A stretch of 64,000 nucleotides of DNA from a virus. A program made the position numbers and the translations under genes. The stretch lies in IMG/VR virus record IMGVR_UViG_3300028844_006278; one strand, given 5' to 3'. The notes under the pieces were generated by a model that was given only the letters and a program-made list of their open reading frames with translations, was not told the origin of the DNA and made no database searches. Below are positions 8,861 through 49,143 of this stretch, in pieces; within the stretch, counting starts at the first letter, position 1; each line of letters starts with the position of its first letter.

Positions 8861-9306
8861 CCGGCCCGTGCTTCGGAGAGGGTGTCCTCTACTAGTTGTT
8901 CGTACTCTCCGTCTTGTAAATCAGCGTAGGCTTGGGTCTCCTCTAGCATGATCCTTTCCCTGTCGTCTTGCGGTAGGTTGTCGATCCTATACCTGGACAT
9001 ATAGGATACTAGGTCTTGATGGCAGTATTCCCACTCTAACTCGTCGTATGCCTCTTCTAAGACGTCCGGGTCTGCGCCCTCCTCTAGTGTGATTGCGAAG
9101 TCTACGTAGTGCATGGCGTACATAGGATTAGCGCTGCATATGTATGTGACTGACTTTTTGTCATACATGTATCGGCCATGGATTTTCGCTATCTTGTGCT
9201 TCTCTAGGAATCGATCCTCGAAGTAAGTTGTTTCATCTATATCGATTAGCTCAAACTCCGGGGCTATGCGGTGTATAGCCTCGTCCGTCTTACTTAGGTC
9301 TTTCAT
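8857..9306 (-). CDS. Acidic hypothetical protein
   Basis: SD + ATG, coupled. Confidence 0.7.
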   Translation of the reverse strand: MKDLSKTDEAIHRIAPEFELIDIDETTYFEDRFLEKHKIAKIHGRYMYDKKSVTYICSANPMYAMHYVDFAITLEEGADPDVLEEAYDELEWEYCHQDLVSYMSRYRIDNLPQDDRERIMLEETQAYADLQDGEYEQLVEDTLSEARAG

Positions 9307-9883
9307 TGTGTGTCGTTCCTTGTGTTGCCTTTGTTACACTGCCGTGGAGGATAGCGATTGCGTCTTTTACCGCGGCGGACCGTGCGGCGAACTCTGCGGC
9401 GGACCCAGCGGCGGACCCAGCGGCGGACCCAGCGGTGGACCCAGCGGCGGACCCAGCGGCGGAATATGCGGCGGACCGTGTGGCGGACCAGGCGGCGGAC
9501 CGTGCGGCGGACCCAGCGGCGGACCAGGCGGCGGACCCAGCGGCGGACCGTGCGGCGTACTCTGCGTCTTTCCGGTCCTCCTCTCTCCCCTCCCGCAGCC
9601 AGCGAAGAACTACTTCGGGTACTTCTGCCTCCCAGTTCCCGATACATCGGAGCGCTGAGCGTCGCGCTGCAAGACTGCACTGCTTCTCGGACATTAGGCG
9701 ATATAGGGCCCAGAGCTTATCCAGCGGCTGGATCTTGCGCATACGGCCTAGCTGCTCTATACTGATCGGCAGCTTAGGCATCAACCATTCGCCTAGTACC
9801 GTACACGGATATCCCTCTCCGTCGAAGTAGCACGCCTCTTTAGATACTAGCCACTCGTGCGTTATTACCTTATCGTCTTTCAT
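9290..9883 (-). CDS. Ala-rich (SAAx)n repeat protein, cassette copy 1
   Basis: High nucleotide identity to 30344-30961 and 48668-49105; 12-bp repeats at about 9370-9557. Confidence 0.85.
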   Translation of the reverse strand: MKDDKVITHEWLVSKEACYFDGEGYPCTVLGEWLMPKLPISIEQLGRMRKIQPLDKLWALYRLMSEKQCSLAARRSALRCIGNWEAEVPEVVLRWLREGREEDRKDAEYAARSAAGSAAWSAAGSAARSAAWSATRSAAYSAAGSAAGSTAGSAAGSAAGSAAEFAARSAAVKDAIAILHGSVTKATQGTTHNERPK

Positions 9884-9904
9884 TGTGTGTCGTTCCTTGC
9901 GTTG
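9298..9904. mobile_element. Putative mobile gene cassette bounded by 30-bp direct repeats (9298-9327, 9875-9904)
   Basis: gtctttcattgtgtgtcgttccttgYgttg at both ends; the repeat contains SD + ATG AAA GAC. Confidence 0.6.
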
Positions 9905-10062
9905 TAGTCGTCCTCTGCCTCTGCCTCTAGGGCGTCTATTACCTCGTTGTTCCAGTGTTCCGCCAAGATCTCCAGAACTCCTGGAGTATATATGATTGCT
10001 TGTTTGCTCTCGTACTCAAGGATCTCGTCCAGCTTACTGTAGAATCGCTCAGTTTCCGTCAT
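9880..10062 (-). CDS. Hypothetical protein
   Basis: Coupled ORF. Confidence 0.65.
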   Translation of the reverse strand: MTETERFYSKLDEILEYESKQAIIYTPGVLEILAEHWNNEVIDALEAEAEDDYNARNDTQ

Positions 10063-10489
10063 TTCCTGCCTCTGAGTTAGCGTTCCATACTGGGTCTACC
10101 TTTATACGTCTCTTCAGCCCCCCGCCCTTTCCGAACCTCTCCGCGACTAGGACTCTGTCGTGCACCCCTACTAGCCATGGCCGGCGGTAGTCGTTGCACT
10201 CTGCGGATACCTCGATTATCTCGTCCATCTCCGGACTATACGCGAGCCCGGCTCCTGTGATTATCGTCTTGCATATAATCTCTGCTACTATCTGAGGGTC
10301 GGGAAGCCAGGGTCTAGTCAGTAAGCAGTCTATTCTGAGCTTCTGATTGACGTAAAGTTTAAGCCACCCCTTGTTGTGGGCCGCCTCATCTATTCTCCAG
10401 ATCTCTCGTGGTATTCCCCTCGAAGATGCTGCTTGCTCGAAAGCGGTAAGGTCCCTGTCTCCGGGAATGCTGCGGTAAATATCGCTCAT
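10049..10489 (-). CDS. Hypothetical protein
   Basis: AAGGACACACAATG start. Confidence 0.7.
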   Translation of the reverse strand: MSDIYRSIPGDRDLTAFEQAASSRGIPREIWRIDEAAHNKGWLKLYVNQKLRIDCLLTRPWLPDPQIVAEIICKTIITGAGLAYSPEMDEIIEVSAECNDYRRPWLVGVHDRVLVAERFGKGGGLKRRIKVDPVWNANSEAGNDGN

Positions 10490-10517
10490 TGTGTGTCCTT
10501 ATGTTGTTAGATCTTGC

Positions 10518-10754
10518 CTACATGTAGGTATCGGGCCTTAGTAGTCCTCGACGCTCTAGGTTTGCTACGGAGCCGCATTCTATCTTACCTCGACTCCCTG
10601 CGGAGTCGATGAACCATACGTTGCCGTTGAATGCCTGGCTATCTAGTGTCAGCCTCTCTCCTCTACATATAGTTCTCCGATGTGTCGCTGATCGCTGTGT
10701 TGTGCTGCCGTAGTATAGAAAGAACTCATCCTGTACTATGTAGTGCCTGCTCAT
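10518..10754 (-). CDS. Hypothetical protein
   Basis: ATGA-coupled. Confidence 0.6.
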   Translation of the reverse strand: MSRHYIVQDEFFLYYGSTTQRSATHRRTICRGERLTLDSQAFNGNVWFIDSAGSRGKIECGSVANLERRGLLRPDTYM

Positions 10755-11089
10755 ACGAATAGCCTATGGTTCTCCAAGTCCGCAGTCCATTCCTCCCCCA
10801 CCGTAAGGCCTCGGTCTTTATACATCTGACCGAACTCCATTACTAGAAATAGAATATCTCGGTACTCGTAGATATCTTCCGAATCCCCGTACCGAGCGGT
10901 TGCTCTGAACTTCGGCTGCCGGTGCTTGCTTAAGCATGAGGTTTCTAGCGGATATAGTTTGATAAATACAGACTTCGGTATACCTCCTACAGAGAAGTAC
11001 ACTCCTCGCTCATCCGTGCCCCACTCGTAAGCTTTGTCGGCGCACTTCTCCAGTATCTCTAGGTGTCCCGCGGTTAGCTTGCTTAGCAT
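10751..11089 (-). CDS. Hypothetical protein
   Basis: Coupled ORF with SD. Confidence 0.65.
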   Translation of the reverse strand: MLSKLTAGHLEILEKCADKAYEWGTDERGVYFSVGGIPKSVFIKLYPLETSCLSKHRQPKFRATARYGDSEDIYEYRDILFLVMEFGQMYKDRGLTVGEEWTADLENHRLFV

Positions 11090-11415
11090 TTTCCTTCTCC
11101 TAGTTGTCTTTTATAGTAGTTATAGATGGGATGTCTCTCCCCGTCCAAGACGTAGTACCCTTTAGAGATCCCTGCCAGGTACCGGCTGCCTTTTGATACA
11201 ACTACCTTGCCGTGAGCGTCCTTGTGATTTTTTCTAGCTCTGTGGGTCGAGGTCTTGTCCATCCATATCTTCCCCGGAGCGACTTCCGATCCGCAGCAGG
11301 CCGATCCTTCTCCAGATTCGTCGTGCCATGCTCCGACTATGTCCCCGTAGTCGTAGAAGAATCCGTCATTGATTTCAACTACCGAGCACTCTCTCTCGCA
11401 TGCTAGGCAGATCAT
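11083..11415 (-). CDS. Cys-containing hypothetical protein
   Basis: CLAC, SACCG; TAATG coupling. Confidence 0.65.
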   Translation of the reverse strand: MICLACERECSVVEINDGFFYDYGDIVGAWHDESGEGSACCGSEVAPGKIWMDKTSTHRARKNHKDAHGKVVVSKGSRYLAGISKGYYVLDGERHPIYNYYKRQLGEGKC

Positions 11416-12101
11416 TAGACCCTTGCCCCTACATAGATATCTAGTCCGTCCAGCCAGTACTCGACTACGACATCATTACGGCTAGGCATTGAAGATATGA
11501 GATCCTCTGCAGATACCTGCATCCAGAATGGATCTGCGTTATGCGATAGATTTACCGACACAAATACCGATTCCGCGTTCCTCAGGGCGTTGAGGAGAGG
11601 CACCGACTTTGTGTGTGTGCTTAGAGGCTCTGCGTCCTCTGTGATGAACCCGTAGCGAGCTCCAGCTAGGCTGCTGTGACAAATTTCGCAGCTCGACGTG
11701 GAGAACTCTTCCATGTCCGGCTCGCCCGTTACACAGTGCGATAACGGTACGAAATGCTCCAGTCCGTAGGTGACTCCCATTCCGAGTTGGTAGGCGCAGT
11801 CTGTGCAGCAATATCCGTCTGCCTCCAGATATCGGGAAAAGTACACGCTTCCGTCGATCATTTCTATATCCCACGTGGCGTCTCTCCTAGTAACTTCTTG
11901 GCCCAGTACTTGCTCTTCCCAGATCTGCTTCCCGTCGTTCTTCGGTGTAGGAGCCTGCATTGCGCGTATATCTTCGTAGGAGATTCCCATTTTCTGCAAC
12001 ATCTTCTCATACATTCTGGCGAATATTGCTGGGGCCATTAAATCTCTTTGGCCGTTAAATCTTTTGCTACTAACGGCCAGTTTTCGTTCTACGCACGTCA
12101 T
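11415..12101 (-). CDS. Hypothetical protein with CxxC pairs
   Basis: AGGAG SD; CTDC, CEIC. Confidence 0.65.
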   Translation of the reverse strand: MTCVERKLAVSSKRFNGQRDLMAPAIFARMYEKMLQKMGISYEDIRAMQAPTPKNDGKQIWEEQVLGQEVTRRDATWDIEMIDGSVYFSRYLEADGYCCTDCAYQLGMGVTYGLEHFVPLSHCVTGEPDMEEFSTSSCEICHSSLAGARYGFITEDAEPLSTHTKSVPLLNALRNAESVFVSVNLSHNADPFWMQVSAEDLISSMPSRNDVVVEYWLDGLDIYVGARV

Positions 12102-12136
12102 AGTGCCTCTCCTGGTTATTCTTCTTGTTTTTGTAA

Positions 12137-12213
12137 TGCGCGGTCAGGGATCGAACCTGTTACAGACCTTCCGACTGCCGTAGGATTTATTAAGGTCTAG
12201 GCTTACTCGCGCA
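12137..12213 (-). ncRNA. tRNA-like RNA lacking a D-arm
   Basis: Acceptor TGCGCG/CGCGCA, T-arm CAGG-TTCGATC-CCTG, internal stem TAGACCTT/AAGGTCTG with 21-nt loop. Confidence 0.55.
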
Positions 12214-12219
12214 ATAGTT

Positions 12220-12250
12220 TGGTATTCCCGCTCGGATTCGAACCCGCGCC
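12220..12250 (-). other. tRNA 3'-end fragment (T-loop...CGGGAAT-A-CCA)
   Basis: GGGTTCGAATCCGAGCGGGAATACCA; acceptor strand complementary to 12453-12459. Confidence 0.6.
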
Positions 12251-12276
12251 TGAATATTCGACCACAGTGGCATAAA

Positions 12277-12347
12277 AGCGGGTAGAGGGAATCGAACCCT
12301 CTTCTTCAGATTGGAAATCTGAGGTAATACCTATATACGATACCCGC
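12277..12347 (-). tRNA. tRNA-Gly(TCC)
   Basis: Acceptor GCGGGTA/TACCCGC, anticodon arm TCAGA-TTTCCAA-TCTGA, T-arm GAGGG-TTCGATT-CCCTC, U73; CCA not encoded. Confidence 0.93.
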
Positions 12348-12384
12348 AATATAATACTATATACACAAACCATCAAAAAATTTA

Positions 12385-12459
12385 TGGCTCTAGTGGCAAT
12401 ATTCGAACTTGAGACCTTGAAGTTAACAGCTTCTTGCTCTTCCGCTGAGTTACGGGAAT
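12385..12459 (-). pseudogene. tRNA-Asn(GTT)-like chimeric or pseudo tRNA
   Basis: D-arm, anticodon loop CTGTTAA, T-loop GTTCGAAT and terminal GCCA present, but local acceptor and T stems do not pair. Confidence 0.6.
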
Positions 12460-12498
12460 ATATGATTGTTAGCCGATGGCTTGCGGCCTCGTTGACTT

Positions 12499-12726
12499 TT
12501 ATGTAGAGTACATTCTAGCTTCGATATAGCTATCCGAGGCTAGTTCGATAAACTTTAGGAACTCCTCAACTCTGGCCGTGTTGACTGTGTATCGATCGGG
12601 GATGAGTAGTCCTACGGACTCCAAGTATTTGATATCCTCGGTAAGCTCTGAGGAATAGTTGTACGTTCTCGTGGTGAATGTGCCGGAGTATAGAGATAGT
12701 AGGATCTCCAGTCGTCGGGGAGTCAT
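12499..12726 (-). CDS. Hypothetical protein
   Basis: ATGA-coupled start MTPRRL. Confidence 0.55.
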   Translation of the reverse strand: MTPRRLEILLSLYSGTFTTRTYNYSSELTEDIKYLESVGLLIPDRYTVNTARVEEFLKFIELASDSYIEARMYST

Positions 12727-13040
12727 ACGCGTTCCCGGCCTTCCCAGGTAGACTCGAGGGCCGATATGCACCGTTCTATGTCCATCTTTATGTTCTCTAG
12801 AGCCGCGACAGCCTCCGCGACCTGGTTGCGGCTAGATCCCTCGATTCGATAGGACTGGGCCACTTCCTCGATAATCAGCTGGCAGAGCATGTCGTCGGGG
12901 CCTTCTTTTTCCTGTCCTGATAATACTCGAATCTGCTCTCCCGTCATAGCCTCGTGTACCCCGCTATGCTTTTCCCAGTGCGTCCTGAATGCTGGGTACA
13001 TAGCCTTAGATAGTATCTCTAGGATTTCAAATAACTCCAT
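12723..13040 (-). CDS. Hypothetical protein
   Basis: SD, ORF. Confidence 0.65.
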   Translation of the reverse strand: MELFEILEILSKAMYPAFRTHWEKHSGVHEAMTGEQIRVLSGQEKEGPDDMLCQLIIEEVAQSYRIEGSSRNQVAEAVAALENIKMDIERCISALESTWEGRERV

Positions 13041-13041
13041 T

Positions 13042-13434
13042 CTACTTCTCCTCTCTGTGTGTTAAACTCTCCGGGAAGTCTATAGCCATCCGGATGTCCA
13101 TAGCGGTCGACTGGTTGCGGTACATCCAAGGCTCTGGGTTGTTCTTGATCGGGCGTAGCCAGTCCTGTATAGTTGGGATGAACCCAAGCTCCGTAATGAT
13201 GTGATCCTCCACTATATCCCGTACTGAGACATCCTCGCCGGTACTGGTGATGAGAGTGGGTCCGAATTTAGTAACGGCCGCCTCTACACCTTGGGAGTGA
13301 TGACGGAGAGCCTGGTGTGTAAAGTCCCCCGTGTGTCCTTTAGTGGAGTCGAACCAGTTGTGGATTTCATAATAATCCGTGTCGTGTCCTCCAAACTTAG
13401 ATGCCGATACGCATGCGTGGTTGTAGGCGTTCAT
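13042..13434 (-). CDS. DUF6915-like phage protein
   Basis: HA..S.KFGG...DY..IH.WFD.TK...HQALRHH...EDH...LGFIPT..DWL. Confidence 0.75.
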   Translation of the reverse strand: MNAYNHACVSASKFGGHDTDYYEIHNWFDSTKGHTGDFTHQALRHHSQGVEAAVTKFGPTLITSTGEDVSVRDIVEDHIITELGFIPTIQDWLRPIKNNPEPWMYRNQSTAMDIRMAIDFPESLTHREEK

Positions 13435-13664: not shown

Positions 13665-13700
13665 TAGTGTGTGTCCTTAGGTGTGTTGTTTGTGGTACGT

Positions 13701-13740
13701 GAATAGAGGACCTAGCATACGTATGCTAGGTCCTCTATTC
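13701..13740. promoter_or_regulatory. Perfect 40-bp palindrome with core box TAGCATACGTATGCTA (13713-13728); operator and/or terminator
   Basis: gaatagaggacctagcatac|gtatgctaggtcctctattc, intergenic. Confidence 0.75.
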
Positions 13741-13744
13741 TTCT

Positions 13745-17736: not shown

Positions 17737-17740
17737 TACG

Positions 17741-25858: not shown

Positions 25859-26257
25859 CTACGCCTCGACTAACAGCGCATCAGCTACAGCTTCGTACTC
25901 TTTTTCGTACTCCTCAGAGTCCGAATCTTCAGAAGCCGTAGGATCGACGCTAAGGGCCTCTACGTCTTGACCCGCACTCTTGGCCGCCTCCCGCTGCTGC
26001 AGGGCTCCCAGGGCATCCTCATACGTCCCTAGCATGGTACGTACCGTTTTACGCAGACCTAGGAACTCCGAGCTGTTCGGAGGCATCTGTAGTAGGCTAT
26101 CCTGCATGTACTCTATGGCGGATAGCAGCTGCTCGGAATTTAGAGGTACTGCTATGAAGCTATCCTCCGAGAACTGTGCTGTGAACAGCTCTGCAGCGCT
26201 GCTCAGCTGTGAAGGGTCTGTCCCGTCAATCTTACTCATATCTACTCCGTGGTCCAA
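25859..26257 (-). CDS. Acidic hypothetical protein
   Basis: Coupled ORF. Confidence 0.65.
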   Translation of the reverse strand: MDHGVDMSKIDGTDPSQLSSAAELFTAQFSEDSFIAVPLNSEQLLSAIEYMQDSLLQMPPNSSEFLGLRKTVRTMLGTYEDALGALQQREAAKSAGQDVEALSVDPTASEDSDSEEYEKEYEAVADALLVEA

Positions 26258-27327
26258 GGGTGGTCGGCGTAATACTTAGCTTCCCGCTTAGTCCGTACGT
26301 CCGCATATATCTGTTCTGAGATGACCGCGTCTACGGTCAGGTTAACGTGACTGCGGTAATTAAGGATCTGTTTTGTCCATGCTGCATACTCCTCCAAACT
26401 TAGGCCCTCCGCTTGTAGACTTCTCTTCAGGCGTATTAGTGATTGCTTCTGTATGGCCTGCTTACGGGGGTCACGCGGCATATGTTCGTGCTGTATCCCG
26501 AAGACGCATACTACGCGGCAGAAGAGCTGATCGTATAAGGCGTAGTCCTTTTCCTTGTATCGGGCGTGGAACCACTTCTTCAGTGCCAAGACGAGGAGCT
26601 GGCACTTATCCGCGTCGGACTCGCCTCGAAGGGCCCTGCCTCCCCAATACTCTCTTTGCGGGATCAGCGCCCAGTCTACGAACACTGGATAGGACATCGT
26701 ACTCAGCTCCAGCGGCACGTTCTCCTCGAACCACTGCAGGATCTCCCGCCAGGCCGCACCATCCTTCGCCAGTAGCTCCTCCCCAGAAGTAAAACCTCCC
26801 ATCGCAGGCACCGATGGCGGCTTGTCCGCCAGGGGGGTCGGCGATGTTAGTAGTTTTATTGGTGTTATTCCTATAGGATTATAAGATCTATTAGTAATAG
26901 GAGTAATAAGAGTCTTATAAAGAGCAGGTTCCGTGCCAGGTTCTGAAATGGCACAATCATGCCCTTCCGACGGATTAGAGGCAGTGAACGGGCATGGCTG
27001 TGCCTTTTCATTAGGGTCTGAAAGGTCATGATGGTGCTCTTTCACATCCAGCGACAATTGATAAAACTCTCCACGTTTAGATACTGATCCGTCCCTGTTT
27101 ATGCGGCTTAAGAGACCTAAGGCTCGGAGGTGTTTCAGATAGTTCTTCAGCGCCCTATACTTGCAGCCGATCTGCGTAGCGAGTCTGCCCATATCGGCCT
27201 TCACTCGGCCGTTCTCATCAGCCTCTGCGGCCAGATACAGGAGAATGAGCGCCTCCTGTCCCTTAACCTCGAGGGAGTTGAGGATGTACGGAATAGCTCG
27301 GGCTCCGTATTCTGTCAGAACTGACAT
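26242..27327 (-). CDS. wHTH protein, putative replication initiator
   Basis: N-terminal wHTH (LILLYLA...RLATQIGC.YRALK..LK.L...GLL.R); internal AT-rich linker and inverted repeat. Confidence 0.65.
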   Translation of the reverse strand: MSVLTEYGARAIPYILNSLEVKGQEALILLYLAAEADENGRVKADMGRLATQIGCKYRALKNYLKHLRALGLLSRINRDGSVSKRGEFYQLSLDVKEHHHDLSDPNEKAQPCPFTASNPSEGHDCAISEPGTEPALYKTLITPITNRSYNPIGITPIKLLTSPTPLADKPPSVPAMGGFTSGEELLAKDGAAWREILQWFEENVPLELSTMSYPVFVDWALIPQREYWGGRALRGESDADKCQLLVLALKKWFHARYKEKDYALYDQLFCRVVCVFGIQHEHMPRDPRKQAIQKQSLIRLKRSLQAEGLSLEEYAAWTKQILNYRSHVNLTVDAVISEQIYADVRTKREAKYYADHPWTTE

Positions 27328-27662
27328 GTATGTTCCTCCGATCGGCAGCTCTCCTCCTCTTCTTCTTCTTCGAGGTACATCTGCTCAATACCTAGACTTA
27401 GTTGATAGAACTCGCCGCTCTCCGAGACTGATCCGTCCGCACGTACCCGGCGTAACAGTCCATCTTCGTGCAGTGTCTGGAGGATACTCTTAAGTGTGCG
27501 GTATGCACAGCCGACCTGAGCAGCGAGCCTACTTGTATCGGCCTTCGCCCGGCCGTTCTCGTCAGCCTCCGAGGCCAGATACAGGAGAATGAGCGCCTCC
27601 CGCGCGCTAAGTACGAGACAGTCGCGGATATACTGGATAGCCCAGGTAGCATACTGTGTCAT
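27315..27662 (-). CDS. wHTH protein, tandem paralog of the initiator N-terminus
   Basis: Shared DNA ggccagatacaggagaatgagcgcctcc; acidic tail. Confidence 0.75.
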   Translation of the reverse strand: MTQYATWAIQYIRDCLVLSAREALILLYLASEADENGRAKADTSRLAAQVGCAYRTLKSILQTLHEDGLLRRVRADGSVSESGEFYQLSLGIEQMYLEEEEEEESCRSEEHTCQF

Positions 27663-28012: not shown

Positions 28013-28549
28013 TCATTGCCGTACTCCGTCCAGGCCTTCTCCGCAGAGCTGTTCCGCGCCGTACACCGCAATGGCAAGGGCAGACCACATGTCTCCCTTC
28101 AATCCATACAGCATACCTGGATCTGCCTTTGTGCCTTGTCCCTTCTTTCCGGAGCCATAGTATCCAAAACGCTCGAGCATCCGTGCGCGCACGTTCGTGT
28201 CCTTAGCACGAGAGCTCTGGCAGTGGTGGATCTTTACCTTATTCCGGGTAACCAGTCGGAAGTCCGCACCGTACTCCTTAGCTACTCGTCGGTACTCTCC
28301 GATCCAGAAGCATGTTTCAAATACGTCGTACCCTACTGCAAAGCCCATGTGGGCGATGTCCTCGCAGAATATAGTTAGAGGAATGTCCGCATCAGGGTCG
28401 GACAGCTCCTCTTTCAGCACGCGCACTATATGCTCCCCATCAGTAAGATACTTACTGTCGATCACAAGGCGACCGCCCTCCATACTGAGGAGGACGGCTC
28501 CGTTGTGCGCTTTGTTGCTAGGGTCAATCCCTAGTAAGCGGATCGACAT
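28013..28549 (-). CDS. RuvC-like Holliday junction resolvase
   Basis: LLGIDP, CED, D.WSALAIA RNase H-fold pattern. Confidence 0.78.
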   Translation of the reverse strand: MSIRLLGIDPSNKAHNGAVLLSMEGGRLVIDSKYLTDGEHIVRVLKEELSDPDADIPLTIFCEDIAHMGFAVGYDVFETCFWIGEYRRVAKEYGADFRLVTRNKVKIHHCQSSRAKDTNVRARMLERFGYYGSGKKGQGTKADPGMLYGLKGDMWSALAIAVYGAEQLCGEGLDGVRQ

Positions 28550-29663: not shown

Positions 29664-30314
29664 CTACTTCTCCAAAGTTAGGAGGGCGTGATATAGGGCC
29701 CTTAGTTTATATACTTGACGGGTGAGGGCAGGACTCCCTACCCCCATATAGCTGTTTGGTAGGTCTCCGTCAAATGCTGGAATAACTCGCGCACATACCT
29801 CCTCGAATCGATAGCCTCCTTGAATGTATGTAGTACGTCTATTAATCTCGTCCTGCAGCGCTCCTAGAGTGTCTACTGACGGTAGCTCTATCCCCACGCT
29901 CATACACTTATACAGAGCCACCATGTCTAGACAGGGCATGTCGGCTAAGATGGGAAAGTGAGCCTGTATCCAAGGACGGGTGAATCTTGCAGTATGCATC
30001 ACTAAGAATGAACTATCCTTCTTAGCGGTGTTTGCCAAGACCTGGGCCTCTATCACATCCATAGCGTTGTCGTAGTAAGTATCTGAAGACACGCCGGTTA
30101 TATCGATAAGAGACTTTCCTGTACTTCCCAGAGAGGCGCTAGGGTCTGCTCCTTTGATGTACATAGTTCCTATGTCCTGCACATCTGCCGCCCCCGTACA
30201 GGAGACGGCCAGCAGATTGTGTTTTTCCGGGGACAGCCCATCTGTTCCGACGGTTACGCTCAGCGCGCGTGCAGGATCGATCCCACGTGCTGTAAGCCAT
30301 GTGTGTAGGGTCAT
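29664..30314 (-). CDS. Degenerate DnaQ-like (DEDD) exonuclease-fold protein
   Basis: VTVGTDGLSP (ExoI-like, acids lost), DITGVS, LVMH..RF, CLDM. Confidence 0.5.
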   Translation of the reverse strand: MTLHTWLTARGIDPARALSVTVGTDGLSPEKHNLLAVSCTGAADVQDIGTMYIKGADPSASLGSTGKSLIDITGVSSDTYYDNAMDVIEAQVLANTAKKDSSFLVMHTARFTRPWIQAHFPILADMPCLDMVALYKCMSVGIELPSVDTLGALQDEINRRTTYIQGGYRFEEVCARVIPAFDGDLPNSYMGVGSPALTRQVYKLRALYHALLTLEK

Positions 30315-30343
30315 TCAGGTACTCTCCTTCGTATCTCTATATT

Positions 30344-30961
30344 TCATTGCGTTGCCTTTGTTACGCTACCCCGGAGGATAGCGATTGCGTCCTTTACTAA
30401 GGCGGCCCCAGCGACGTGCCACATGGCGGAATATGCGGCGGAATATGCGGCGGAAGTTGAGGCGTACTCTGCGGCGGACCGTGCGGCGTTCCACATGTCG
30501 GAATATGCGGCGGACCGTGCGGCGGACCAGGCGTACTCTGCGGTGGACCCAGCGGCGGACCCCGCGGCGGACCGTGCGGCGTGCCACATGGCGGAATATG
30601 CGGCGGAATATGCGGCGGAAGTTGCGGCGGAATATGCGTCTCCCCGGTCCTGCTCTCTCCCCTCCCGCAGCCAGCGAAGAACTACTTCGGGTACTTCTGC
30701 CTCCCAGTTCCCGATACAGCGGAGAGCAGAGCGCCGAGCTGCAAGGCTGCGCTGCTCTTCAGACATTAGGCGACATAGAGCCCAGAGTTTATCATCCGAT
30801 GGGATCTTTCGCATACGTCCTAACTGCTCTATGCTGATCGGCAGCTTAGGCATCAACCATGCGCCTAGTACCGTACACGGATATCCGCTACATGCGTCAA
30901 AGTAGCAGGCGCTTTTCGATACTAGCCACTCGTGCGTTATTACCTTATCTTCGTCTTTCAT
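30344..30961 (-). CDS. Ala-rich (SAAx)n repeat protein, cassette copy 2
   Basis: Paralog of copies 1 and 3; 13-bp direct repeat tttcattgcgttg at 30342-30354 and 30956-30968. Confidence 0.85.
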   Translation of the reverse strand: MKDEDKVITHEWLVSKSACYFDACSGYPCTVLGAWLMPKLPISIEQLGRMRKIPSDDKLWALCRLMSEEQRSLAARRSALRCIGNWEAEVPEVVLRWLREGREQDRGDAYSAATSAAYSAAYSAMWHAARSAAGSAAGSTAEYAWSAARSAAYSDMWNAARSAAEYASTSAAYSAAYSAMWHVAGAALVKDAIAILRGSVTKATQ

Positions 30962-30994
30962 TGCGTTGTTGTTCCTTGTTATTAAGTGTAGGTA

Positions 30995-33689: not shown

Positions 33690-34240
33690 TATGATCTCTC
33701 CTTTGTTAGTGTGTCTACATCTATGATCTCTAGAGGAGTCCGCTCCAAGGAGGAGGGGACTATAATCCTAGGGTGCGGAACAGCTGTGGGGCGGGATGCA
33801 CTATATGCTTTAAGGACATATGTATGTTTACTGGGAACCCTGAATAGAAGCCAGGGCGGGCTGTGACCTGCTTCGGACATCTGTAGGACATCCCTATACT
33901 TAGCCCACGTCTTTAGAAGAGCGGACGACGTAAAGGAATCCGGCTTCAGTAAGAAGCCGACCAGCTTACTCTGCGAAATCGTCTTATGATACACGAAGAC
34001 GTGATCGACCACTCCTGCGCTAAGTGACTTATAGGAGGAGAGAACGTCCTTCGCATCGAAGGCGTCCCCCCAGAACCTCTGTATATCCTTAGGCTCTACT
34101 CCGAGGGACGGAGCCGCATCCTTCATAAGATCCCTAGACAGTCTCCACCTCTTACGCTGCTTGGTCTTATCGTTTCGCTTCCGCTCAGCCTTTCTAAACC
34201 GCGCGGCAAGCTCCGTCCGCCTATCCTCGTACTCACTCAC
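33689..34240 (-). CDS. Basic hypothetical protein
   Basis: Coupled ORF. Confidence 0.7.
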   Translation of the reverse strand: MSEYEDRRTELAARFRKAERKRNDKTKQRKRWRLSRDLMKDAAPSLGVEPKDIQRFWGDAFDAKDVLSSYKSLSAGVVDHVFVYHKTISQSKLVGFLLKPDSFTSSALLKTWAKYRDVLQMSEAGHSPPWLLFRVPSKHTYVLKAYSASRPTAVPHPRIIVPSSLERTPLEIIDVDTLTKERS

Positions 34241-35499
34241 AACAGGGCCTGCCCTTCGAAGTGAGGCTGACGTGAGACAGACAGAAGATCCTGTAAGTCC
34301 TTTACGAGGTCAGGATCGTTATGGATAGCGTGGCCTAGATCCTTTGGAGTAGCCTCCTTGATGCCGAGACGAGAGCACTTTAGCTTATTGCCAGCTCCGC
34401 CGATGTGGCAGATCTCTTTCAGCTTAGCGCGCTCAATCGTTACCCTGCCCGTCTCTCGAGTTAGCAACTCCACCAAGGACGTATCCCAGTCAATATCTAC
34501 GTGATACCGCTGATAATCCTCCTCGGTCTCTCCCATATGGGATAGGATAAGATCTCGAGAGTGCTTCTCCTTGTCAGGGCCCCGGGTACGCATCTGCACA
34601 CAGATCTTGAGTCCCGTATCGGCCAGGGACGCCTTCAGGGTCTGCATCCATACCTTGGACCGCGCCTCAGACCGCAGTTTATTTCCTCCCTTCTCCCGAA
34701 TCATCTCAATCGTGGCGAAGTTTAGGAAATCTTTATGCGCTCCGCCCGGCGATCCCTTCTCCGGCGCGAAGTTGGCACCGCCTTGTCCTGCAGGCATCTT
34801 CTCCTTCAGGTGATTAATGATCACTAGGGCCATGGGCCGCTCTTGCAGCTTGGTTAGAGTCCATGTCTTCAGATGGTTTGTAAGATCAGAGGCCCGTCGT
34901 GCGGACAGGTACCCGCTTACTGAATTGACGTCGCCCGTCTTGTTAAGGGCCGTTACCTCTTCTTTAGAGACCAATGCGCCCATGCTATCCAATAGGAATA
35001 CCATAGGATGAGACTGGTCCGGCACTACCTGGTCATACTGCGTGGCGTACTCACTCATCGCCAGGGACAGGTCTTCCACCGTCTTTACCGGGACGCGCAT
35101 GATCATCTCGCTGAACAGCACGTCATCGTCGAGAATCCCTCGGACTAGGTTGTCGTTGGTCTTATTCTCCACATCCAGATATACCCCAATGCCCGCGGCA
35201 CGCTCGTACTTTAGGAACTGCGACACTACCCACCATCCCATCTGGGACTTTAAGGATCCCGGCTTACCTACCAAGGACATTGCTTGACGGAGAGGCAGTA
35301 CATCCAAGCCCAGTAGATACTGGAACGGAAGGGCGCCTGTCAACGGAATACCCGTCTTAGGATCTCCCATAGGTCGAGGGGCATGGTTTTTCATCACCTT
35401 ACCGAAGAGGTCTCTAGCAGCAAAGCGAAGGGCGGCGCCGTCTGTTGACTCTTTGGTAGGACTTGCTAGGGCTACTGAGGCCCGTTTACGTGGAGGCAT
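34237..35499 (-). CDS. RecA/UvsX-like recombinase
   Basis: Walker A variant GKPGSLKS, YLDVENK, Walker B FLLDS, INHLKEK, PGG.HKDF. Confidence 0.85.
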   Translation of the reverse strand: MPPRKRASVALASPTKESTDGAALRFAARDLFGKVMKNHAPRPMGDPKTGIPLTGALPFQYLLGLDVLPLRQAMSLVGKPGSLKSQMGWWVVSQFLKYERAAGIGVYLDVENKTNDNLVRGILDDDVLFSEMIMRVPVKTVEDLSLAMSEYATQYDQVVPDQSHPMVFLLDSMGALVSKEEVTALNKTGDVNSVSGYLSARRASDLTNHLKTWTLTKLQERPMALVIINHLKEKMPAGQGGANFAPEKGSPGGAHKDFLNFATIEMIREKGGNKLRSEARSKVWMQTLKASLADTGLKICVQMRTRGPDKEKHSRDLILSHMGETEEDYQRYHVDIDWDTSLVELLTRETGRVTIERAKLKEICHIGGAGNKLKCSRLGIKEATPKDLGHAIHNDPDLVKDLQDLLSVSRQPHFEGQALL

Positions 35500-37242: not shown

Positions 37243-38031
37243 CTAACCGGTAGACAGCCCCTTCAAGGCGTCCGCAAATTTGGCCAGATCAGCGGGGCTT
37301 GTGACAGCCTCCGCTGCTGTGACCGCAACAGGGACGGGCGGAGGAGGCGCTGCTGCGTAGTTAGCAGGAGGCGCTGCGGGAGGCGCTGCTGCGTAGTTAG
37401 CAGGAGGCGCTGCGGGAGGCGCTGCTGCGTAGTTAGCAGGAGGCGTTGCGGGAGGCGTTGCGGGAGGCGCTGCGGTGAACGGAGGAGGAGGCGCAGAGGC
37501 CGCCTTAAATCCCCCCTCTCCTACCGGGTCAAAGCCCGTATGTCCCGCTGCTGGTGCCACGAGCTCTGTGATCTGGATTTGGTTGAGGAACATGCCTACA
37601 CCAGACACAACGCCTGTGGCGTATGCACGGCCCGTGCCGATTGAGAACCGACCACGACTACCGTTGCCGATGAGCCAATTCTCCCCAGCAGGTGCCTTCT
37701 CCCCCGTGGCATCGTAGAGAGCCGGGGGACGGGTGGTCTTGAACTTAAAGACCAAGGTCCCTGCGGCTTCGCCGGGAGTTCCAGGCACGTACTTCTTTGC
37801 CCAGATCTTTTTCTTTTTCTCGGGATCCGGCTCCGCATCAGCAAGAGCCGTGAGACCCGCGTTTACGATCTCCTCCAGAGTCTGCCGAAGGTGTTGCCCT
37901 TCCTCGCCCTCGATTACAATCGAGCATTCGATCTTCGTCGACGACGAGTCGAAATGGGTGTTGGGAACGGTCGTGTCCCCATTGATGCCGCACCAGACCA
38001 AGTCCCCGAAGGGTGTGATAATGTCTGCCAT
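37243..38031 (-). CDS. T7 Gp2.5-like ssDNA-binding protein with Pro/Ala repeat tail
   Basis: TPFG.L.W, FKFK, LYDA.G, IGNGS, GV...LN.IQI.ELV; adjacent to PolA; 36-bp repeats at about 37343-37475. Confidence 0.8.
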   Translation of the reverse strand: MADIITPFGDLVWCGINGDTTVPNTHFDSSSTKIECSIVIEGEEGQHLRQTLEEIVNAGLTALADAEPDPEKKKKIWAKKYVPGTPGEAAGTLVFKFKTTRPPALYDATGEKAPAGENWLIGNGSRGRFSIGTGRAYATGVVSGVGMFLNQIQITELVAPAAGHTGFDPVGEGGFKAASAPPPPFTAAPPATPPATPPANYAAAPPAAPPANYAAAPPAAPPANYAAAPPPPVPVAVTAAEAVTSPADLAKFADALKGLSTG

Positions 38032-43831: not shown

Positions 43832-45203
43832 CTCTCCTTTTGTCCGATCTACGGACAAACCATGGGTCGAAGTTATCCTGGAAGTCTACTAGGACCCCCT
43901 GGGGTTTGTTGTCGGATATTCGTGAAAGTCGTCCAACTATCTGCGTGCATGGGATGCTGGACGTCTGCCCGTCCCCTCGGATTAGGACCGATAGTTCAGG
44001 AAAATCAACTCCCTTGTTCCAGCAGGTAGTGCAGATTGCTTTCTTAACCTCGCCCGTCTCGAATCGCTTACGTATATCGTCTGCGTCCGGAGACTTTAGA
44101 TCCGTGCGCTCTGGATCTACAATGCCCATATCGACAAACGCTTTCCAGTACTGGTCTCCGACTCCTCCGTGAACTACTTCGAACTCCGGAAGCCGGTGCT
44201 TTAGACGCAGGGCATGTTCTGTCTTCTCCACGAATACCAATACTTGGTGATCCTCGAACGATTTCGCAGCCCTTGCGATCAGGTCATTTCTATGGGAGTT
44301 CTGCCAGTACCCTTCTTTCTTGCGCGCTATCTCCGACCCCACCAGAGGAGACCTATCCTCATTTACAGAAATGAAGCGACACTCTATTGGAACAACCAAC
44401 CCTGCCTCTTCGGCATCCTGGTAGCCCACCTCAGCAATCACTGGTCCGAATAGAGCTTCTATGAACTTATCGGCTCTATCTGAGCGACCAGTAGGAGATG
44501 CGGAAAACCCGAATCTACGGCACTGCGAGAATCCTAGCACGGCAGTTACAGCAGTAGTGCTGCCGGCCTCGTGAGCCTCGTCATATATTAACAGGTCGGG
44601 CCACTCTGAAGGTATCTTATATAGGACACCTACTGTAGAAACGCATACTTCGCTCTCCTCCAGAAACCTATGGGATCCGGAGTGCTTAGACACCTTCTTT
44701 TCAGGACATGCCCGGCAGATTCTGTCGTATATGGAATTCACCACGGGGCGCGACCCAGACACCACTAATATCTTTGCAGACGGATAGATACGACACAGCT
44801 GCTCGATCATGTAGGTTTTACCCATCCCGGTGGCGCAGTTCACCACCCCCATGTAGGAACTACATATCTTGGCAAGTACCTCCGGTTGATGGGTCCTAAG
44901 GGGCCCTACATTATCGAAGGACGGAGTAGGCAGCGGGTCCCGATGATCCTTTATCTCGAAGGGCACGCGGGCGGCCTGGAGAGAGGAACAAAGAGAAGTC
45001 AGGAGCCCAGCGTGGGTAAAGATCCCGCCGGACGCTACGTCATCGTATAGGGGAATCTTCTCGAATATGAAATTGCCCTTACTAGTGGACGATCGCATAT
45101 TCCACGGCTTTTTCTTCATGCGAGTAGCTGTCAGCGGAGCAGCCATACATGGGTGGAATGAGGAAGCCGTTAATATGTTTCCTCGAAGCTCTAGCAATAT
45201 CAT
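43773..45203 (-). CDS. SF2 DNA helicase (UvsW-like)
   Basis: ATGMGKT, DEAH, SASP, GVDFP, QIVGRLSR. Confidence 0.9.
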   Translation of the reverse strand: MILLELRGNILTASSFHPCMAAPLTATRMKKKPWNMRSSTSKGNFIFEKIPLYDDVASGGIFTHAGLLTSLCSSLQAARVPFEIKDHRDPLPTPSFDNVGPLRTHQPEVLAKICSSYMGVVNCATGMGKTYMIEQLCRIYPSAKILVVSGSRPVVNSIYDRICRACPEKKVSKHSGSHRFLEESEVCVSTVGVLYKIPSEWPDLLIYDEAHEAGSTTAVTAVLGFSQCRRFGFSASPTGRSDRADKFIEALFGPVIAEVGYQDAEEAGLVVPIECRFISVNEDRSPLVGSEIARKKEGYWQNSHRNDLIARAAKSFEDHQVLVFVEKTEHALRLKHRLPEFEVVHGGVGDQYWKAFVDMGIVDPERTDLKSPDADDIRKRFETGEVKKAICTTCWNKGVDFPELSVLIRGDGQTSSIPCTQIVGRLSRISDNKPQGVLVDFQDNFDPWFVRRSDKRRDEYEKKGWRIRDGWVPAYS

Positions 45204-45254
45204 ACTGCGCGGCCTCCTTGTTGTTGGTGTTGTTGTTGATCCGAGTGAGCCTCC

Positions 45255-47318
45255 CTATACAGCATAGGCTCCGGACGCAGACACGTCCTTGATTCGGCTA
45301 AAGGCTGGCATCAGTGCCGGCTCGTGTGTTGCGATCAGCACTTCAGATGACGTACGCTCGGTGATACTCTTAGCCTTGGAGAGGATAGATGCAAGCTTTG
45401 GTTTATTGATATCATCCAGCCACACAGTAGGCTCGTCAAGAACCAGCAGAGGCACGCGGAAAGCCAACAGGTCGGCAGCCGCAAACTTAAAGGCAAGGGC
45501 TAGAGCTACCATTTGTCCTCCGCTAAGTGCTCGAGAAGATACGTTGCTCTTATGAGGGAACGACACCATAAAGTCGAACTCCTCGCTGATGTACGCCGTG
45601 AAGTTGGTATCGAATAAGGATAGGTATGAATCCAGCTGAGCATTCAGCCCCACTAGCATTTTCTGCATAACTAGCTTAGGTAGGTTGTCCCGATGCAAGA
45701 CTGTGCGTGCCTCAGCTAAGAATGATGAGACCTTCTCTGCCTTATTCCGAAGGGACTGCTCTTCCTGGGCCGCAGAGAGTCGTTCCCGACTGGCTGCTAA
45801 GGTTGCGTCGGCGGCCGCTTTTGTTTCAATAGCCTTTAGCCGAACGCTCTCTAGTTCCTTCAGATTGGAGATGAACTCCTCGCACTTCTCCCTAGACTCT
45901 TCCGAGCAGGCGACCTGTGCCTCTGCTTGGAGTAGGGAGTCCCTAGCATCGTCTAGCTTGCGCTGTACTGGGGATATCTGAGCCTCTGCGCGGGCCTGTA
46001 GCTGTAGGTACTGCGTGAATTTAGCATACGCGTTCTTTTTCTGCATATACTTATCCTTATCGAACCCCTGCAGCGATTCCTGCATAGTCCGCACAGATTC
46101 CAAAAGATGTCCGACCTGCCTCTCGGCGGAAGCTATCTCCGCCTTGTACCCACTTCTTTTTATGTAGTTGTTATTAAAAGCCCTGTTGCTCTCCTCCCAC
46201 TCCTCAGACAGCTTTTCCAATTCCTTCCGAGCAGCATCCAGCGATGCCTCGGCCTCGTCCTTTTCTTCGTCCTTTGCGTCGTGGAGTCTCAGGCACGTGG
46301 GACACACCCCAGCAACGCATAGATCGTGCTGCGCGCTGAGCTTGGCCACGATGGCCCGCTTATCGGAGAATAGTCCGTCCCCGGGAGAGGGAACGGTAGG
46401 TAGCTGTCTTAGTTGATTTCGAAGATCCTCCAATCGATCTGACGCGGACAGGAGTGACGAGGATGTCAGATCCAGTCTATCCTTCTGACGATATAGGTTT
46501 TCTTCCTCTTCTGTAGGAGGATCGCAAGGTGGACACGGCTCCGGGGTGTGCTGGGACTGCAGGTCCGCCAGCGTCTTGGACAGATAAGCAACTTGCGCCA
46601 CGGCCTGGGCCACCTTCTTCGACTTCTCGTCCTCGGTCGGAGACGACAGAAGGGCCTGAACTTCCGGAAGTTGTTTTCTATACTCCTCTTCCAGAGCCTC
46701 CGAGTCGGCGATAGTCTTGGCCGATTGTTCCCTGACCTGCGTCTGATGCTTGATTGTCTCGGACAGCGTGCCCACCTCCTCGGATCGGTCCAGATATAGA
46801 GGAATTTTAGACCGTGCGTCAGATATCTTTGCTCGGATCCGCTCTACAGTGCTGTGCTGAACCAGACGTTGGAAGAACGCCATTCGCTGCGCATGGCCCA
46901 TAGTCAGGATGGAGATAAGACCCCCCTGTGGTGTGAAGCAGGTTTCGTACATACCGGAAAAGGACGTACCTAGCGCGTCCTCCATAAAGGCATTGGCCTC
47001 TTTACTTCGAAGGGGTTTCTCCATATCTGGCGACGACAGCGTCACAGCGGATGAGTCTACCCGACGCTTCAGGGTAAATGTCCGACCACCGTGCTCGAAG
47101 ACAAGAGTCGTGCTGCCGGACGAGGCTGCCCACCCGAGCATATCCGCCTTCGCCGTATCTGACGAGGTCTTTCCGGATATTGCAAAATATAGCGCATCCA
47201 AAAAGTTAGACTTCCCAGATCCGTTGCGACCCACTACTCCTGTAATTCCAGGCTGGAACTCGTGGTAGAGGTCCTTGTGCTGGAATATGTTATCCAGCGT
47301 CAGTGATACAAACTTCAT
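45255..47318 (-). CDS. sbcC: SbcC/Rad50-like SMC ATPase (gp46-like)
   Basis: GRNGSGKS, Q-loop, Zn hook CPTC, LSGGQ, LDEPT, ATH. Confidence 0.92.
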   Translation of the reverse strand: MKFVSLTLDNIFQHKDLYHEFQPGITGVVGRNGSGKSNFLDALYFAISGKTSSDTAKADMLGWAASSGSTTLVFEHGGRTFTLKRRVDSSAVTLSSPDMEKPLRSKEANAFMEDALGTSFSGMYETCFTPQGGLISILTMGHAQRMAFFQRLVQHSTVERIRAKISDARSKIPLYLDRSEEVGTLSETIKHQTQVREQSAKTIADSEALEEEYRKQLPEVQALLSSPTEDEKSKKVAQAVAQVAYLSKTLADLQSQHTPEPCPPCDPPTEEEENLYRQKDRLDLTSSSLLSASDRLEDLRNQLRQLPTVPSPGDGLFSDKRAIVAKLSAQHDLCVAGVCPTCLRLHDAKDEEKDEAEASLDAARKELEKLSEEWEESNRAFNNNYIKRSGYKAEIASAERQVGHLLESVRTMQESLQGFDKDKYMQKKNAYAKFTQYLQLQARAEAQISPVQRKLDDARDSLLQAEAQVACSEESREKCEEFISNLKELESVRLKAIETKAAADATLAASRERLSAAQEEQSLRNKAEKVSSFLAEARTVLHRDNLPKLVMQKMLVGLNAQLDSYLSLFDTNFTAYISEEFDFMVSFPHKSNVSSRALSGGQMVALALAFKFAAADLLAFRVPLLVLDEPTVWLDDINKPKLASILSKAKSITERTSSEVLIATHEPALMPAFSRIKDVSASGAYAV

Positions 47319-48396
47319 CGGGTACTCCTTTATCTACTATCCGCTGAATCTCTATGTCCTCATTCCCCGCGAGACATCCGGATAGAAAGTCGTATAGGGG
47401 CCGCTTATCTGCAGGATCGCAGAATACGGATAGAGAGGACTGCAGCGATAAGTCGCTCATGCTCTTACGAGCTTGGATCAAGTGATCCTCCGATACTAAT
47501 CCGGTAGCGAGAGGGCGGGAGAACACCTTAACATTAGATGCCACACCTAGTACCTCGCCCACCTCATTCGCTAGTTTTGTCGGATACCGAACCTCTACTA
47601 TAGGCTCTAGCCCGTCCGCCTCTGCTGGAGAACCTGCCAGCTCCTTTAGAAGAGCACATACCTCCTCTAGATCTTCTACTACCTGTACGGAAAATCTGTG
47701 TATACGTCTTGTAGCGTGCGGGACAAATTCCCACTCCGCGGCACCCTCCTCGAGAATATACGCCCCGTGCGGTCCTCCTTGCTCTATGTTGCAGGGCTGA
47801 AGAGGTCCTGGAGATATGCAGACTCCGGATCCGCGCAGGCTGGTAATGTCTCGTACATGCACGTCCCCGACTAATACATTGCCCACATGCAAGGGAATGT
47901 CGTCTAGGGATAGGTCAGCAGCTGCCTCGAAATGCACTAAGTGTTCAAACATCTGGTGCAGTATTAGGAAATCGCAGGCAGGCACAGAGTCCAGCGCTAG
48001 TGGCAGATCCGTCTTACATTGCCAATCCAGTCCGTAGATTACTTTCCCGTCCAGCTCTACAGACCTGCCGTGTATGTGCGTAGCTCCCTGTACTGATGGA
48101 AGAGGCTCTACTGCGTCAAAGTCGTGATTGCCTTGAACGAAGTATACTTCAACTCCTTCTTTGTATAGGTCGTCAACAAACGAGGTAAACGCATGCAGTG
48201 TAGCTCCGTCTACTCTCTTCTCGTCGAATATGTCTCCGCCTAGGATTACATGCAGATCCGGATCTGGGCTAGATCTCCACCTGCGTATAAGAGAGTCCCG
48301 CATAGACGCTAAGGCGTGAAACCCGTCCCCATCCATATCTCTACGAGACCGCCACATAAAACGACGGAGATGTAAGTCAGCAGAGAACGCTATCAT
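47290..48396 (-). CDS. sbcD: SbcD/Mre11-like nuclease (gp47-like)
   Basis: ADLHL, GGDIFD, GNHD, HQ, GDVH; adjacent to sbcC. Confidence 0.9.
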   Translation of the reverse strand: MIAFSADLHLRRFMWRSRRDMDGDGFHALASMRDSLIRRWRSSPDPDLHVILGGDIFDEKRVDGATLHAFTSFVDDLYKEGVEVYFVQGNHDFDAVEPLPSVQGATHIHGRSVELDGKVIYGLDWQCKTDLPLALDSVPACDFLILHQMFEHLVHFEAAADLSLDDIPLHVGNVLVGDVHVRDITSLRGSGVCISPGPLQPCNIEQGGPHGAYILEEGAAEWEFVPHATRRIHRFSVQVVEDLEEVCALLKELAGSPAEADGLEPIVEVRYPTKLANEVGEVLGVASNVKVFSRPLATGLVSEDHLIQARKSMSDLSLQSSLSVFCDPADKRPLYDFLSGCLAGNEDIEIQRIVDKGVPDEVCITDAG

Positions 48397-48671
48397 GGAT
48401 CCACCTGCCGTTTCAGACTCTCCGCTACCCAGTGCGCTAATGCACCTGCGCTGGCGGCGTCTTCGAAGTCGTGAAACACCTCCGGACGGTCCGGTAGCTT
48501 CCTACCATCCGGGGCAGTAACTTTCCTATATCCTAGGACTACCAAGTTGGTATACAGCTTTAGGTCAGGGCAGGTTACCCGAAGACGCTGTACGGACATC
48601 TTTATAGGGCCTGCGGCAGGCGCCTTCTTACGAGTATTCTTCTTCTTACGAGTATTATTCTTCTTACTCAT
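48393..48671 (-). CDS. Basic hypothetical protein
   Basis: ATGA-coupled to cassette copy 3; 18-bp duplication at N-terminus. Confidence 0.65.
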   Translation of the reverse strand: MSKKNNTRKKKNTRKKAPAAGPIKMSVQRLRVTCPDLKLYTNLVVLGYRKVTAPDGRKLPDRPEVFHDFEDAASAGALAHWVAESLKRQVDP

Positions 48672-49105
48672 TGTGTTGCCTTTGTTATGCTACCTTGGAG
48701 GATAGCGATTGCGTCTTTTACCGCGGCGGACCGTGCGGCGGACCGTGCGGCGAACTCTGCGGCGGACCCAGCGGCGTACTCTGCGTCTTTCCGGTCCTCC
48801 TCTCTCCCCTCCCGCAGCCAGCGAAGAACTACTTCGGGTACTTCTGCCTCCCAGTTCCCGATACATCGGAGCGCTGAGCGTCGCGCTGCAAGACTGCACT
48901 GCTCTTCAGACATTAGGCGATATAGAGCCCAGAGCTTATCCCGTGCGGGGATCTTGCGCATACGGCCTAGCTGCTCTATACTGATCGGCAGCTTAGGCAG
49001 AAGCCATCTTCCTAGAGCCGTGTCAGGCTCTCCCTCTTCGTCGAAGTAGCACGCCCCTTTCGAGACTAGCCACTCGTGCGTTATTACCTTATCTTCGTCT
49101 TTCAT
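48668..49105 (-). CDS. Ala-rich (SAAx)n repeat protein, cassette copy 3 (short array)
   Basis: Start MKDEDK at 49105 after AAGGA SD; tcattgYgttg at 48668-48678 and 49102-49112. Confidence 0.85.
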   Translation of the reverse strand: MKDEDKVITHEWLVSKGACYFDEEGEPDTALGRWLLPKLPISIEQLGRMRKIPARDKLWALYRLMSEEQCSLAARRSALRCIGNWEAEVPEVVLRWLREGREEDRKDAEYAAGSAAEFAARSAARSAAVKDAIAILQGSITKATQ

Positions 49106-49143
49106 TGCGTTGTTGTTCCTTGTTATTAAGTATGGGAGGGCAT

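Follow-up and report, generated by a model that had tools for sequence, protein, structure and literature searches.

The material analysed was a 64,000-nucleotide (nt) stretch, referred to here as the window, of the virus record IMGVR_UViG_3300028844_006278, which is part of a marine phage contig of ~165 kb; the window has a GC content of 52.5%, and its minus strand carries nearly all of the genes. Three "cassettes" that had been named in an original prediction, made from the sequence alone, were found to be real minus-strand paralogous open reading frames (ORFs) at exactly the predicted coordinates: copy 1 at 9290..9883 (-), encoding 197 amino acids (aa); copy 2 at 30344..30961 (-), encoding 205 aa; and copy 3 at 48668..49105 (-), encoding 145 aa from MKDEDK. 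All three share a 105-residue N-terminal part, an array of AAxS units encoded by a 12-nt tandem repeat, and a C-terminal tail ending in TKATQ. Over the N-terminal 105 residues, the copies are 80–88% identical in amino acids and 86–92% identical in nucleotides (first ~320 nt); the long identical stretches of the prediction do exist (see below), but its term "near-identical" overstates this degree of likeness. The array varies in length, with ~16 units in copy 1 (9371..9565 (-), approximate limits), ~19–20 in copy 2 and 4 in copy 3. In copy 1, the N-terminal domain is followed by Imm5-like helices and the AAxS units, and a C-terminal extension is encoded by reading on through a repeated start site. 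A fourth paralog (P0003, 216 aa) is encoded on the same ~165 kb contig outside the window, giving at least four copies in this phage; further fragments of the unit were looked for in the window, and none were found.

Only this one-gene unit is repeated. As predicted, the genes flanking copies 1 to 3 are unrelated to one another, and similarity among the copies stops at the ends of the unit, save for a 5' untranslated region (UTR) of 26 nt that contains the Shine-Dalgarno (SD) sequence, is identical in copies 2 (30962..30987 (-)) and 3 (49106..49131 (-)), and forms part of the copied unit. Scans for promoters and terminators around copies 2 and 3 gave no more sites than expected from shuffled sequence, and none fell within the repeats. 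Inverted repeats of ≥10 nt were found neither at the termini nor at the 3' end of the unit, and its composition is not foreign (N-terminal domain GC of 54–56% versus 52% in other genes). Consistent with the predicted lack of transposase, integrase, reverse transcriptase and endonuclease motifs, no recombinase, transposase or endonuclease domain was found in the cassette proteins with Pfam, and their PHROG matches were only of unknown function. Likewise, no transposase, endonuclease or IntI was found among ~28 scanned window proteins, a subset of the ORFs in the window.

Each copy is bracketed by sequences that resemble a single translation start site. On the coding strand, each copy opens with AAGGAA, which resembles an SD, followed by a spacer rich in CA and by ATG AAA GAC; it closes with AAAGG, CAACRCA and ATGA, in which the stop codon TGA and an ATG overlap. 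In every copy read, the right end reproduces part of the left end. The sequence AACAAAGGCAACRCAA was confirmed at the end of all three copies, and the core CAACRCAATGA (≤1 mismatch) has six matches in 64 kb, all of which are the six junctions, compared to 0.99 expected; none of 100 shuffles reached six matches. The flanking direct repeats measure 30 base pairs (bp) with 1 mismatch (25 exact) at copy 1, 13 bp at copy 2, and 11 bp with 1 mismatch at copy 3; the latter two are exactly as predicted, and the first was not listed in the prediction. In comparison, the longest word common to the 5' and 3' junctions of a single gene is 4–8 nt for 69 other window genes. These data demonstrate that the repeat pattern goes beyond chance. 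When a 5-nt gap is allowed, the repeats of copies 2 and 3 reach further upstream (ATAACAA(A)GG).

The content of the repeats, all of which are read on the minus strand (-), differs from copy to copy. The upstream repeat of copy 1 (9875..9904, 30 bp) carries the SD-like AAGGAA, the spacer, and the ATG with two further codons (MKD), and it overlaps the stop of an upstream 60-aa gene (ATGA); the downstream repeat (9298..9327, 29/30 identical) supplies the SD, ATG and MKD of a 149-aa ORFan gene at 8857-9306. The ORFan is thereby preceded by the same SD as the cassette and has the same ATG and next two codons, so that it too starts with MKD; no homolog of the ORFan was found anywhere. At copy 2, the upstream 13-bp repeat (30956..30968) comprises the spacer, the ATG and one further codon, AAA, and the downstream 13-bp repeat (30342..30354) comprises the last codons followed by the ATGA stop/start overlap. 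This terminal ATGA opens only a 10-codon mini-ORF, MKYRDTKEST* (30315..30347 (-)), which runs through the native SD of a 216-aa gene (29664-30314) and ends directly before its ATG. At copy 3, the 11-bp repeats lie at 49102..49112 (upstream) and 48668..48678 (downstream, 1 mismatch), and the downstream ATGA is the start of a 92-aa basic protein gene (48393-48671) that precedes sbcD. With respect to the fourth copy, sequence joined to a loose end at window position 9325 gives the 3' end of P0003 as …GGCAATGATGTAG followed by an AT-rich spacer, with 30 nt of the 3' flank covered; here the CAACRCA part is 5 nt shorter, the TGA is out of frame, the protein ends in …TEAMM, and the coupled end is lost.

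Alternatively, the units could be ordinary paralogs without a special mode of spread, duplicated or gained through the generic illegitimate recombination behind all phage mosaics, with ends that are alike by functional convergence (both being strong CA-rich, ATGA-coupled starts) or through joint recognition by one translational regulator. In line with this, AAGGA with CA-rich spacers is widespread among the genes of this phage, and 12 nt of the copy 1 repeat are found again at the start of the gene at 10049-10489. In addition, the repeats are kept at 52/54 positions, which is better than synonymous sites and fits selection on the repeats. However, the exact motif occurs at no other of ~70 junctions, and convergence does not predict perfect identity at positions outside the SD and the ATG. 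Moreover, the 25-nt exact repeat of copy 1 reaches 9 nt into both coding regions, thereby giving an unrelated ORFan the same MKD start, and the terminal ATGA of copy 2 starts only the mini-ORF described above and no pre-existing gene. Altogether, this alternative deserves serious consideration but is unlikely.

A further explanation for the flanking repeats is that the unit is a transposable or homing element whose movement depends on an enzyme supplied in trans, either by the host or by a gene elsewhere in the 165 kb genome, and that the repeats are duplications of start-site targets. Flanking direct repeats and insertion precisely at gene starts are what such an element would produce, and the different repeat sequence at a homolog in another phage contig (L001, described below) is likewise compatible with it. 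The length of the repeats, however, is not fixed (11, 13, 16 and 30 bp, including the homolog), and copies 2 and 3, which lie at two different targets, have their repeat and the 26-nt UTR in common; the repeat is therefore carried along with the unit. For these two reasons, the repeats are not classical target-site duplications. The unit also lacks terminal inverted repeats, and neither the cassette nor the ~28 scanned proteins contain an endonuclease or transposase domain. Movement in trans is thus very improbable.

Because the window derives from a short-read metagenome assembly, and because the interiors of the copies break Logan contigs, the copies might in principle represent one gene that was collapsed or misplaced three times. 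This explanation is hardly credible, since substitutions and repeat number differ from copy to copy, and Logan contigs of the source runs bridge unique flanks into copy 1 (both junctions) and copy 2 (3' junction). Furthermore, reads in the Logan data cover the shared domain ~3.5x as deeply as the flanks, two separate assemblies of ~165 kb carry the same proteins, and an independent freshwater run contains a near-identical phage, including the 3' junction of copy 1. Across 9217-9362, the window and this freshwater sample show only two differences, at 9312 and 9316, both of which are located inside the downstream 30-bp repeat of copy 1.

Synonymous divergence (dS) among the copies is 0.17–0.38, with ratios of nonsynonymous to synonymous divergence (dN/dS) of 0.24–0.37. 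Judging from these ratios, all copies are under purifying selection and are functional genes, a result that is also what would be expected of ordinary paralogs. Differences among the copies are clustered. One run of 66 nt does not vary among the three (9581..9646 (-) in copy 1; P ~1e-4, column shuffle) and could represent either a gene-conversion patch or constraint at the nucleotide level; copies 1 and 3 share an identical run of 122 nt, copies 2 and 3 share one of 67 nt that includes the 26 nt of the 5' UTR, and copies 1 and 2 share another segment. The patchiness of the 66-, 122- and 67-nt runs is significant (P from 1e-4 to 5e-3), and this mosaic identity fits gene conversion among the copies. 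Synonymous sites between the window and its closest relative (L030/L032) are saturated (proportion of synonymous differences, pS, of 0.6–0.87). When compared to this saturation, the dS of 0.17–0.38 among the copies indicates that they coalesce much later than the split from that relative, and that the family spread in this lineage.

The sites of copies 2 and 3 are empty in related phages. In a relative of 200 kb (L028/L029), the polymerase is 51% identical to that of the window, and ~15 replication and recombination genes are encoded in the same order; the homologs of the genes on either side of copy 2 lie only 25 nt apart. In the same relative, the membrane protein upstream of sbcD is followed directly by the basic protein, and no family member is present in 22 kb. 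In the closer relative L030/L032, SbcD is 71–83% identical, one neighbouring 58-aa protein is 93% identical, and the copy 3 site without the cassette consists of the membrane protein, a 113-nt spacer, the basic protein and SbcD. In this spacer (L032 721-833), a GC-rich hairpin followed by a T-run resembles a terminator, and the basic protein has a separate start site, GGAG; in the window, copy 3 sits where L032 has the terminator and GGAG signal. The L030/L032 lineage does encode a diverged family member without AAxS repeats beside its polymerase module, where the window has a different ORF. Judged by gene order in these relatives, the positions of copies 2 and 3 are not ancestral, and the ground for refutation named with the prediction, fixed and syntenic positions in all relatives, does not apply.

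Comparison of DNA and protein sequences to 50,697 GenBank phages gave no match and thus no close sequenced phage, and a pattern search of IMG/VR or JGI contigs did not find the gene family. The N-terminal ITHEWLV..ACY domain is rare: among 1.8 billion proteins, 32 representatives reach E<=1e-3, some of them spurious (e.g., P0040), and seven reach E<=1e-10. A homolog that is 59% identical (P0004) is encoded on an unrelated phage contig of 28.6 kb (L001), which has nothing else in common with the window. P0004 is flanked by a perfect 16-bp repeat, GAGGCGGGGCTATGAG, which runs from the SD to the ATGA overlap, differs from the repeat of the window, and is absent at 18 other gene junctions of L001. 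No relatives of L001 were found for an empty-site comparison. An unrelated but perfect 16-mer at both ends argues against dispersal of ordinary paralogs with convergent ends; on the other side, homologs in other phages are located in tightly ATGA-coupled operons, and most of these are without repeats. The proposition that all members of the family are flanked by repeats was rejected, because most members elsewhere, about 25 in other phages, have none. One gene of the DUF7666/AAxS type (L012 124-789) has a 10-nt in-register repeat, GCCGTGACCG, across its start/stop overlaps; this case is borderline and could be a weak second instance. The neighbourhood of one remote homolog (P0037) is variable within the population: in a close relative represented by four samples (L023-L026), the gene after P0037 encodes 120 or 136 aa and the gene before it encodes 240 or 257 aa, depending on the sample.

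The reading that we favour, and that we hold to be somewhat probable, is that the copies form a lineage-specific family of dispersed paralogs that was spread by the short-homology recombination of the phage at start-site repeats and was subsequently subject to gene conversion. A one-gene module without promoter, terminator or recombinase would bring its own ribosome-binding site, and its last codons (…TKATQ, then TGA) would rebuild a look-alike initiation region composed of AAAGG, a CA-rich spacer and ATGA; consequently, ribosomes that finish the module could restart on the downstream gene, coupling the two in translation. The modules would have been inserted between pre-existing neighbours of conserved gene order. 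The most likely route would involve a UvsX-like recombinase (34237..35499 (-)), a Gp2.5-like single-stranded DNA-binding/annealing protein (37243..38031 (-)), a resolvase (Holliday-junction resolvase-like protein, 28013..28549 (-)) and SbcCD acting on start-site repeats of 11–30 bp; the first two are candidates for machinery that acts in trans, and their presence in the window agrees with the earlier proposal of a phage-encoded recombinase. The likeness of each right end to part of the left end points to a possible tandem or circular intermediate, and such ends would suit an origin from a head-to-tail dimer or a circle. After dispersal, the copies would have swapped patches by gene conversion.

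Several observations weigh against this interpretation. Repeats of 11–13 bp are short for recombination of the RecA type, and CA-rich initiation regions of the AAGGA type are common in this phage, such that the likeness of the ends could partly be functional convergence. The empty and filled sites are too diverged for alignment at the nucleotide level, and the boundaries of the insertions thus cannot be placed. Flanking repeats are absent from 18 AAxS/DUF7666 genes in IMG/VR loci, from the remote N-terminal-domain homologs P0037, P0039 and P0041, and from L037, with the 10-nt match in L012 as the one exception; given the absence from these 18 genes and three remote relatives, the repeats are not a family-wide trait. 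The copies are 8–14% diverged, which means that they did not spread recently on a population scale. At copy 1, the Logan contigs of three runs contain neither a cassette-less nor a circular joint, although such contigs would miss rare forms and do not exclude them, and the 3' junction of copy 1 is at the identical position in the independent sample. As no movement was observed, the term "mobile element" is a proposal for this unit rather than a description of it. Overall, the prediction is partly supported: spread within the lineage is supported by the empty sites and the young copies, but current movement, which the term "mobile element" implies, is not, given the dS of 0.17–0.38 and the lack of an excision or circle joint.

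A more specific and rather doubtful version of this interpretation is that the unit is a recombinase-free "translational cassette", that is, an ORF whose two ends are copies of one start site. Such a cassette would loop out as a circle or tandem-duplicate and re-enter the starts of other genes by short-homology annealing, and it would arrive already coupled and re-prime the gene behind it.

Among known systems, the closest parallel is found in the PeSL (promoter-early stem-loop) cassettes of T4-type phages, in which mini-circles can arise and single genes are inserted, deleted and swapped when the phage machinery recombines the repeats (Arbiol et al. 2010, PMC2839356; Comeau et al. 2014, PMC4122927). 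As outlined in those accounts, short repeated expression signals flank non-essential ORFs and no dedicated recombinase takes part, similar to the direct repeats of 30, 13 and 11 bp that flank the copies in the window. However, the PeSL repeat as characterized there consists of a sigma70 promoter and a terminator hairpin, whereas the repeat in the window is a translational signal (SD, spacer and ATGA) of 11–30 bp that lies partly inside coding sequence. Many unrelated ORFs are associated with PeSLs in the same accounts, whereas the repeat described here is tied to one gene family. Mini-circles are also reported for PeSLs, while the present unit is known from assembled sequence, with empty sites in diverged relatives. 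By analogy, the arrangement in the window may be regarded as a variant of PeSL-type modular shuffling in which the seam is a translation signal.

Other systems bear a more limited resemblance. Integron cassettes are likewise promoterless single-ORF units in one orientation that are expressed by read-through, and a circular intermediate is plausible here as well; however, the unit has no attC-like imperfect palindrome, IntI is absent from the cassette and the ~28 scanned proteins, and the insertion sites are dispersed instead of being located at one attI. Similar to a moron, the unit is an extra accessory gene between two genes that adjoin in relatives, but morons carry their own promoter and terminator, and the unit has neither and would instead be coupled in translation at both ends. 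Insertion sequences, miniature inverted-repeat transposable elements and transposons differ from the unit in that the latter has no terminal inverted repeats, direct repeats of unfixed length (11, 13 and 30 bp; 16 bp in L001) and no transposase in the element. Unlike homing endonucleases and mobile introns, the cassette encodes no LAGLIDADG, GIY-YIG, HNH or similar nuclease domain, and its protein model is all-helical. At the internal-protein (ip) loci of T-even phages, reportedly described by Repoila and co-workers in 1994, unrelated genes are said to share a conserved 5' leader and gene start (initiation region and first codons) at which recombination can take place. The SD, ATG and MKD of copy 1 are similarly found in its ORFan neighbour; however, only three codons are common to the two genes and there is thus no capsid-targeting peptide.

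How phages gain genes at exact gene boundaries while their operons stay intact is a long-standing question, and the usual answer is random illegitimate recombination followed by selection. The locus described here provides a concrete and testable alternative, with four copies (three of which were read and are bracketed by start-site repeats), relatives in which sites are empty, and a further, independent case in another phage. If the translational cassette is real, it would represent a general route by which large phages acquire ORFans at gene junctions, parallel to the PeSL mini-circles, and if circles or precise deletions occur at the repeats, short translational signals would join PeSLs as recombination seams. 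Mobility of the cassette would also give the AAxS-repeat family, which is common in uncultured phages, a well-defined model locus; should the cassette not be mobile, the locus would still be a clean case of lineage-specific paralog expansion with concerted evolution.

The encoded protein has no match in Pfam (copies 1–3, E<=0.1). Structure prediction for copy 3 produced a confident all-helical model (29-sequence alignment; predicted local distance difference test, pLDDT, of 87.8) that matches no solved structure in the PDB, while the model of copy 2, built from 6 sequences, was of low confidence. With a template-modelling (TM) score of 0.67, the copy 3 model superposes on a cluster of the ESM Atlas that has Imm5_like in 21% of its members, and a language-model search again pointed to Imm5_like, in mostly viral clusters (Atlas feature score of 0.94). 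The modelled helical fold of copy 3 may thus be of the Imm5_like type. A remote relative (P0035) matches the Pfam model of Imm5_like (PF21805) and copies 1–3 do not; moreover, there is no polymorphic-toxin neighbour at the copies, which are surrounded by replication and recombination genes and ORFans. Homology to DUF7666 proteins (PF24703; hhalign 99.8%) covers the middle helices and the AAxS repeats, which correspond to the C-terminal part of those proteins, but the N-terminal DUF7666 domain is not present in the copies, whose own ITHEWLV..ACY N-terminal domain forms a separate small family and sets them apart from Imm5_like and DUF7666 proteins. As a guess, the product could be a binding or inhibitor protein with a helical repeat of tunable length.

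Apart from the recombination genes named above, the window encodes a family-A DNA polymerase, helicases, a primase, SbcC, SbcD and the large terminase. A scan with Rfam returned a transfer RNA (tRNA) as the sole match, namely a tRNA-Gly (anticodon TCC) at 12277-12347 (-); tRNA genes of other organisms also map to this position, which explains a read depth of 4x that of the flanks and the many loose ends. The phage is rich in structural-looking proteins that bear repeats. A 778-aa ORF at 56079-58415 (-) contains ~70–75 tandem units of 18 nt at 56669-58100 with matches to the DUF1388 repeat, and the gene next to it (58429-60261) encodes a matrixin-like (M10) metallopeptidase. More in-frame tandem or local repeats are located at 60319-60626, 61287-61387, 61877-62484 and 62553-62749 (all (-)) in ORFs of 144 and 1031 aa, with units of 21–45 nt in addition to 300-nt duplications at 85–86% identity. 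Lastly, a local duplication of 154 nt with 77% identity (27164-27317 and 27508-27661) extends across the adjoining ORFs 26242-27327 and 27315-27662.

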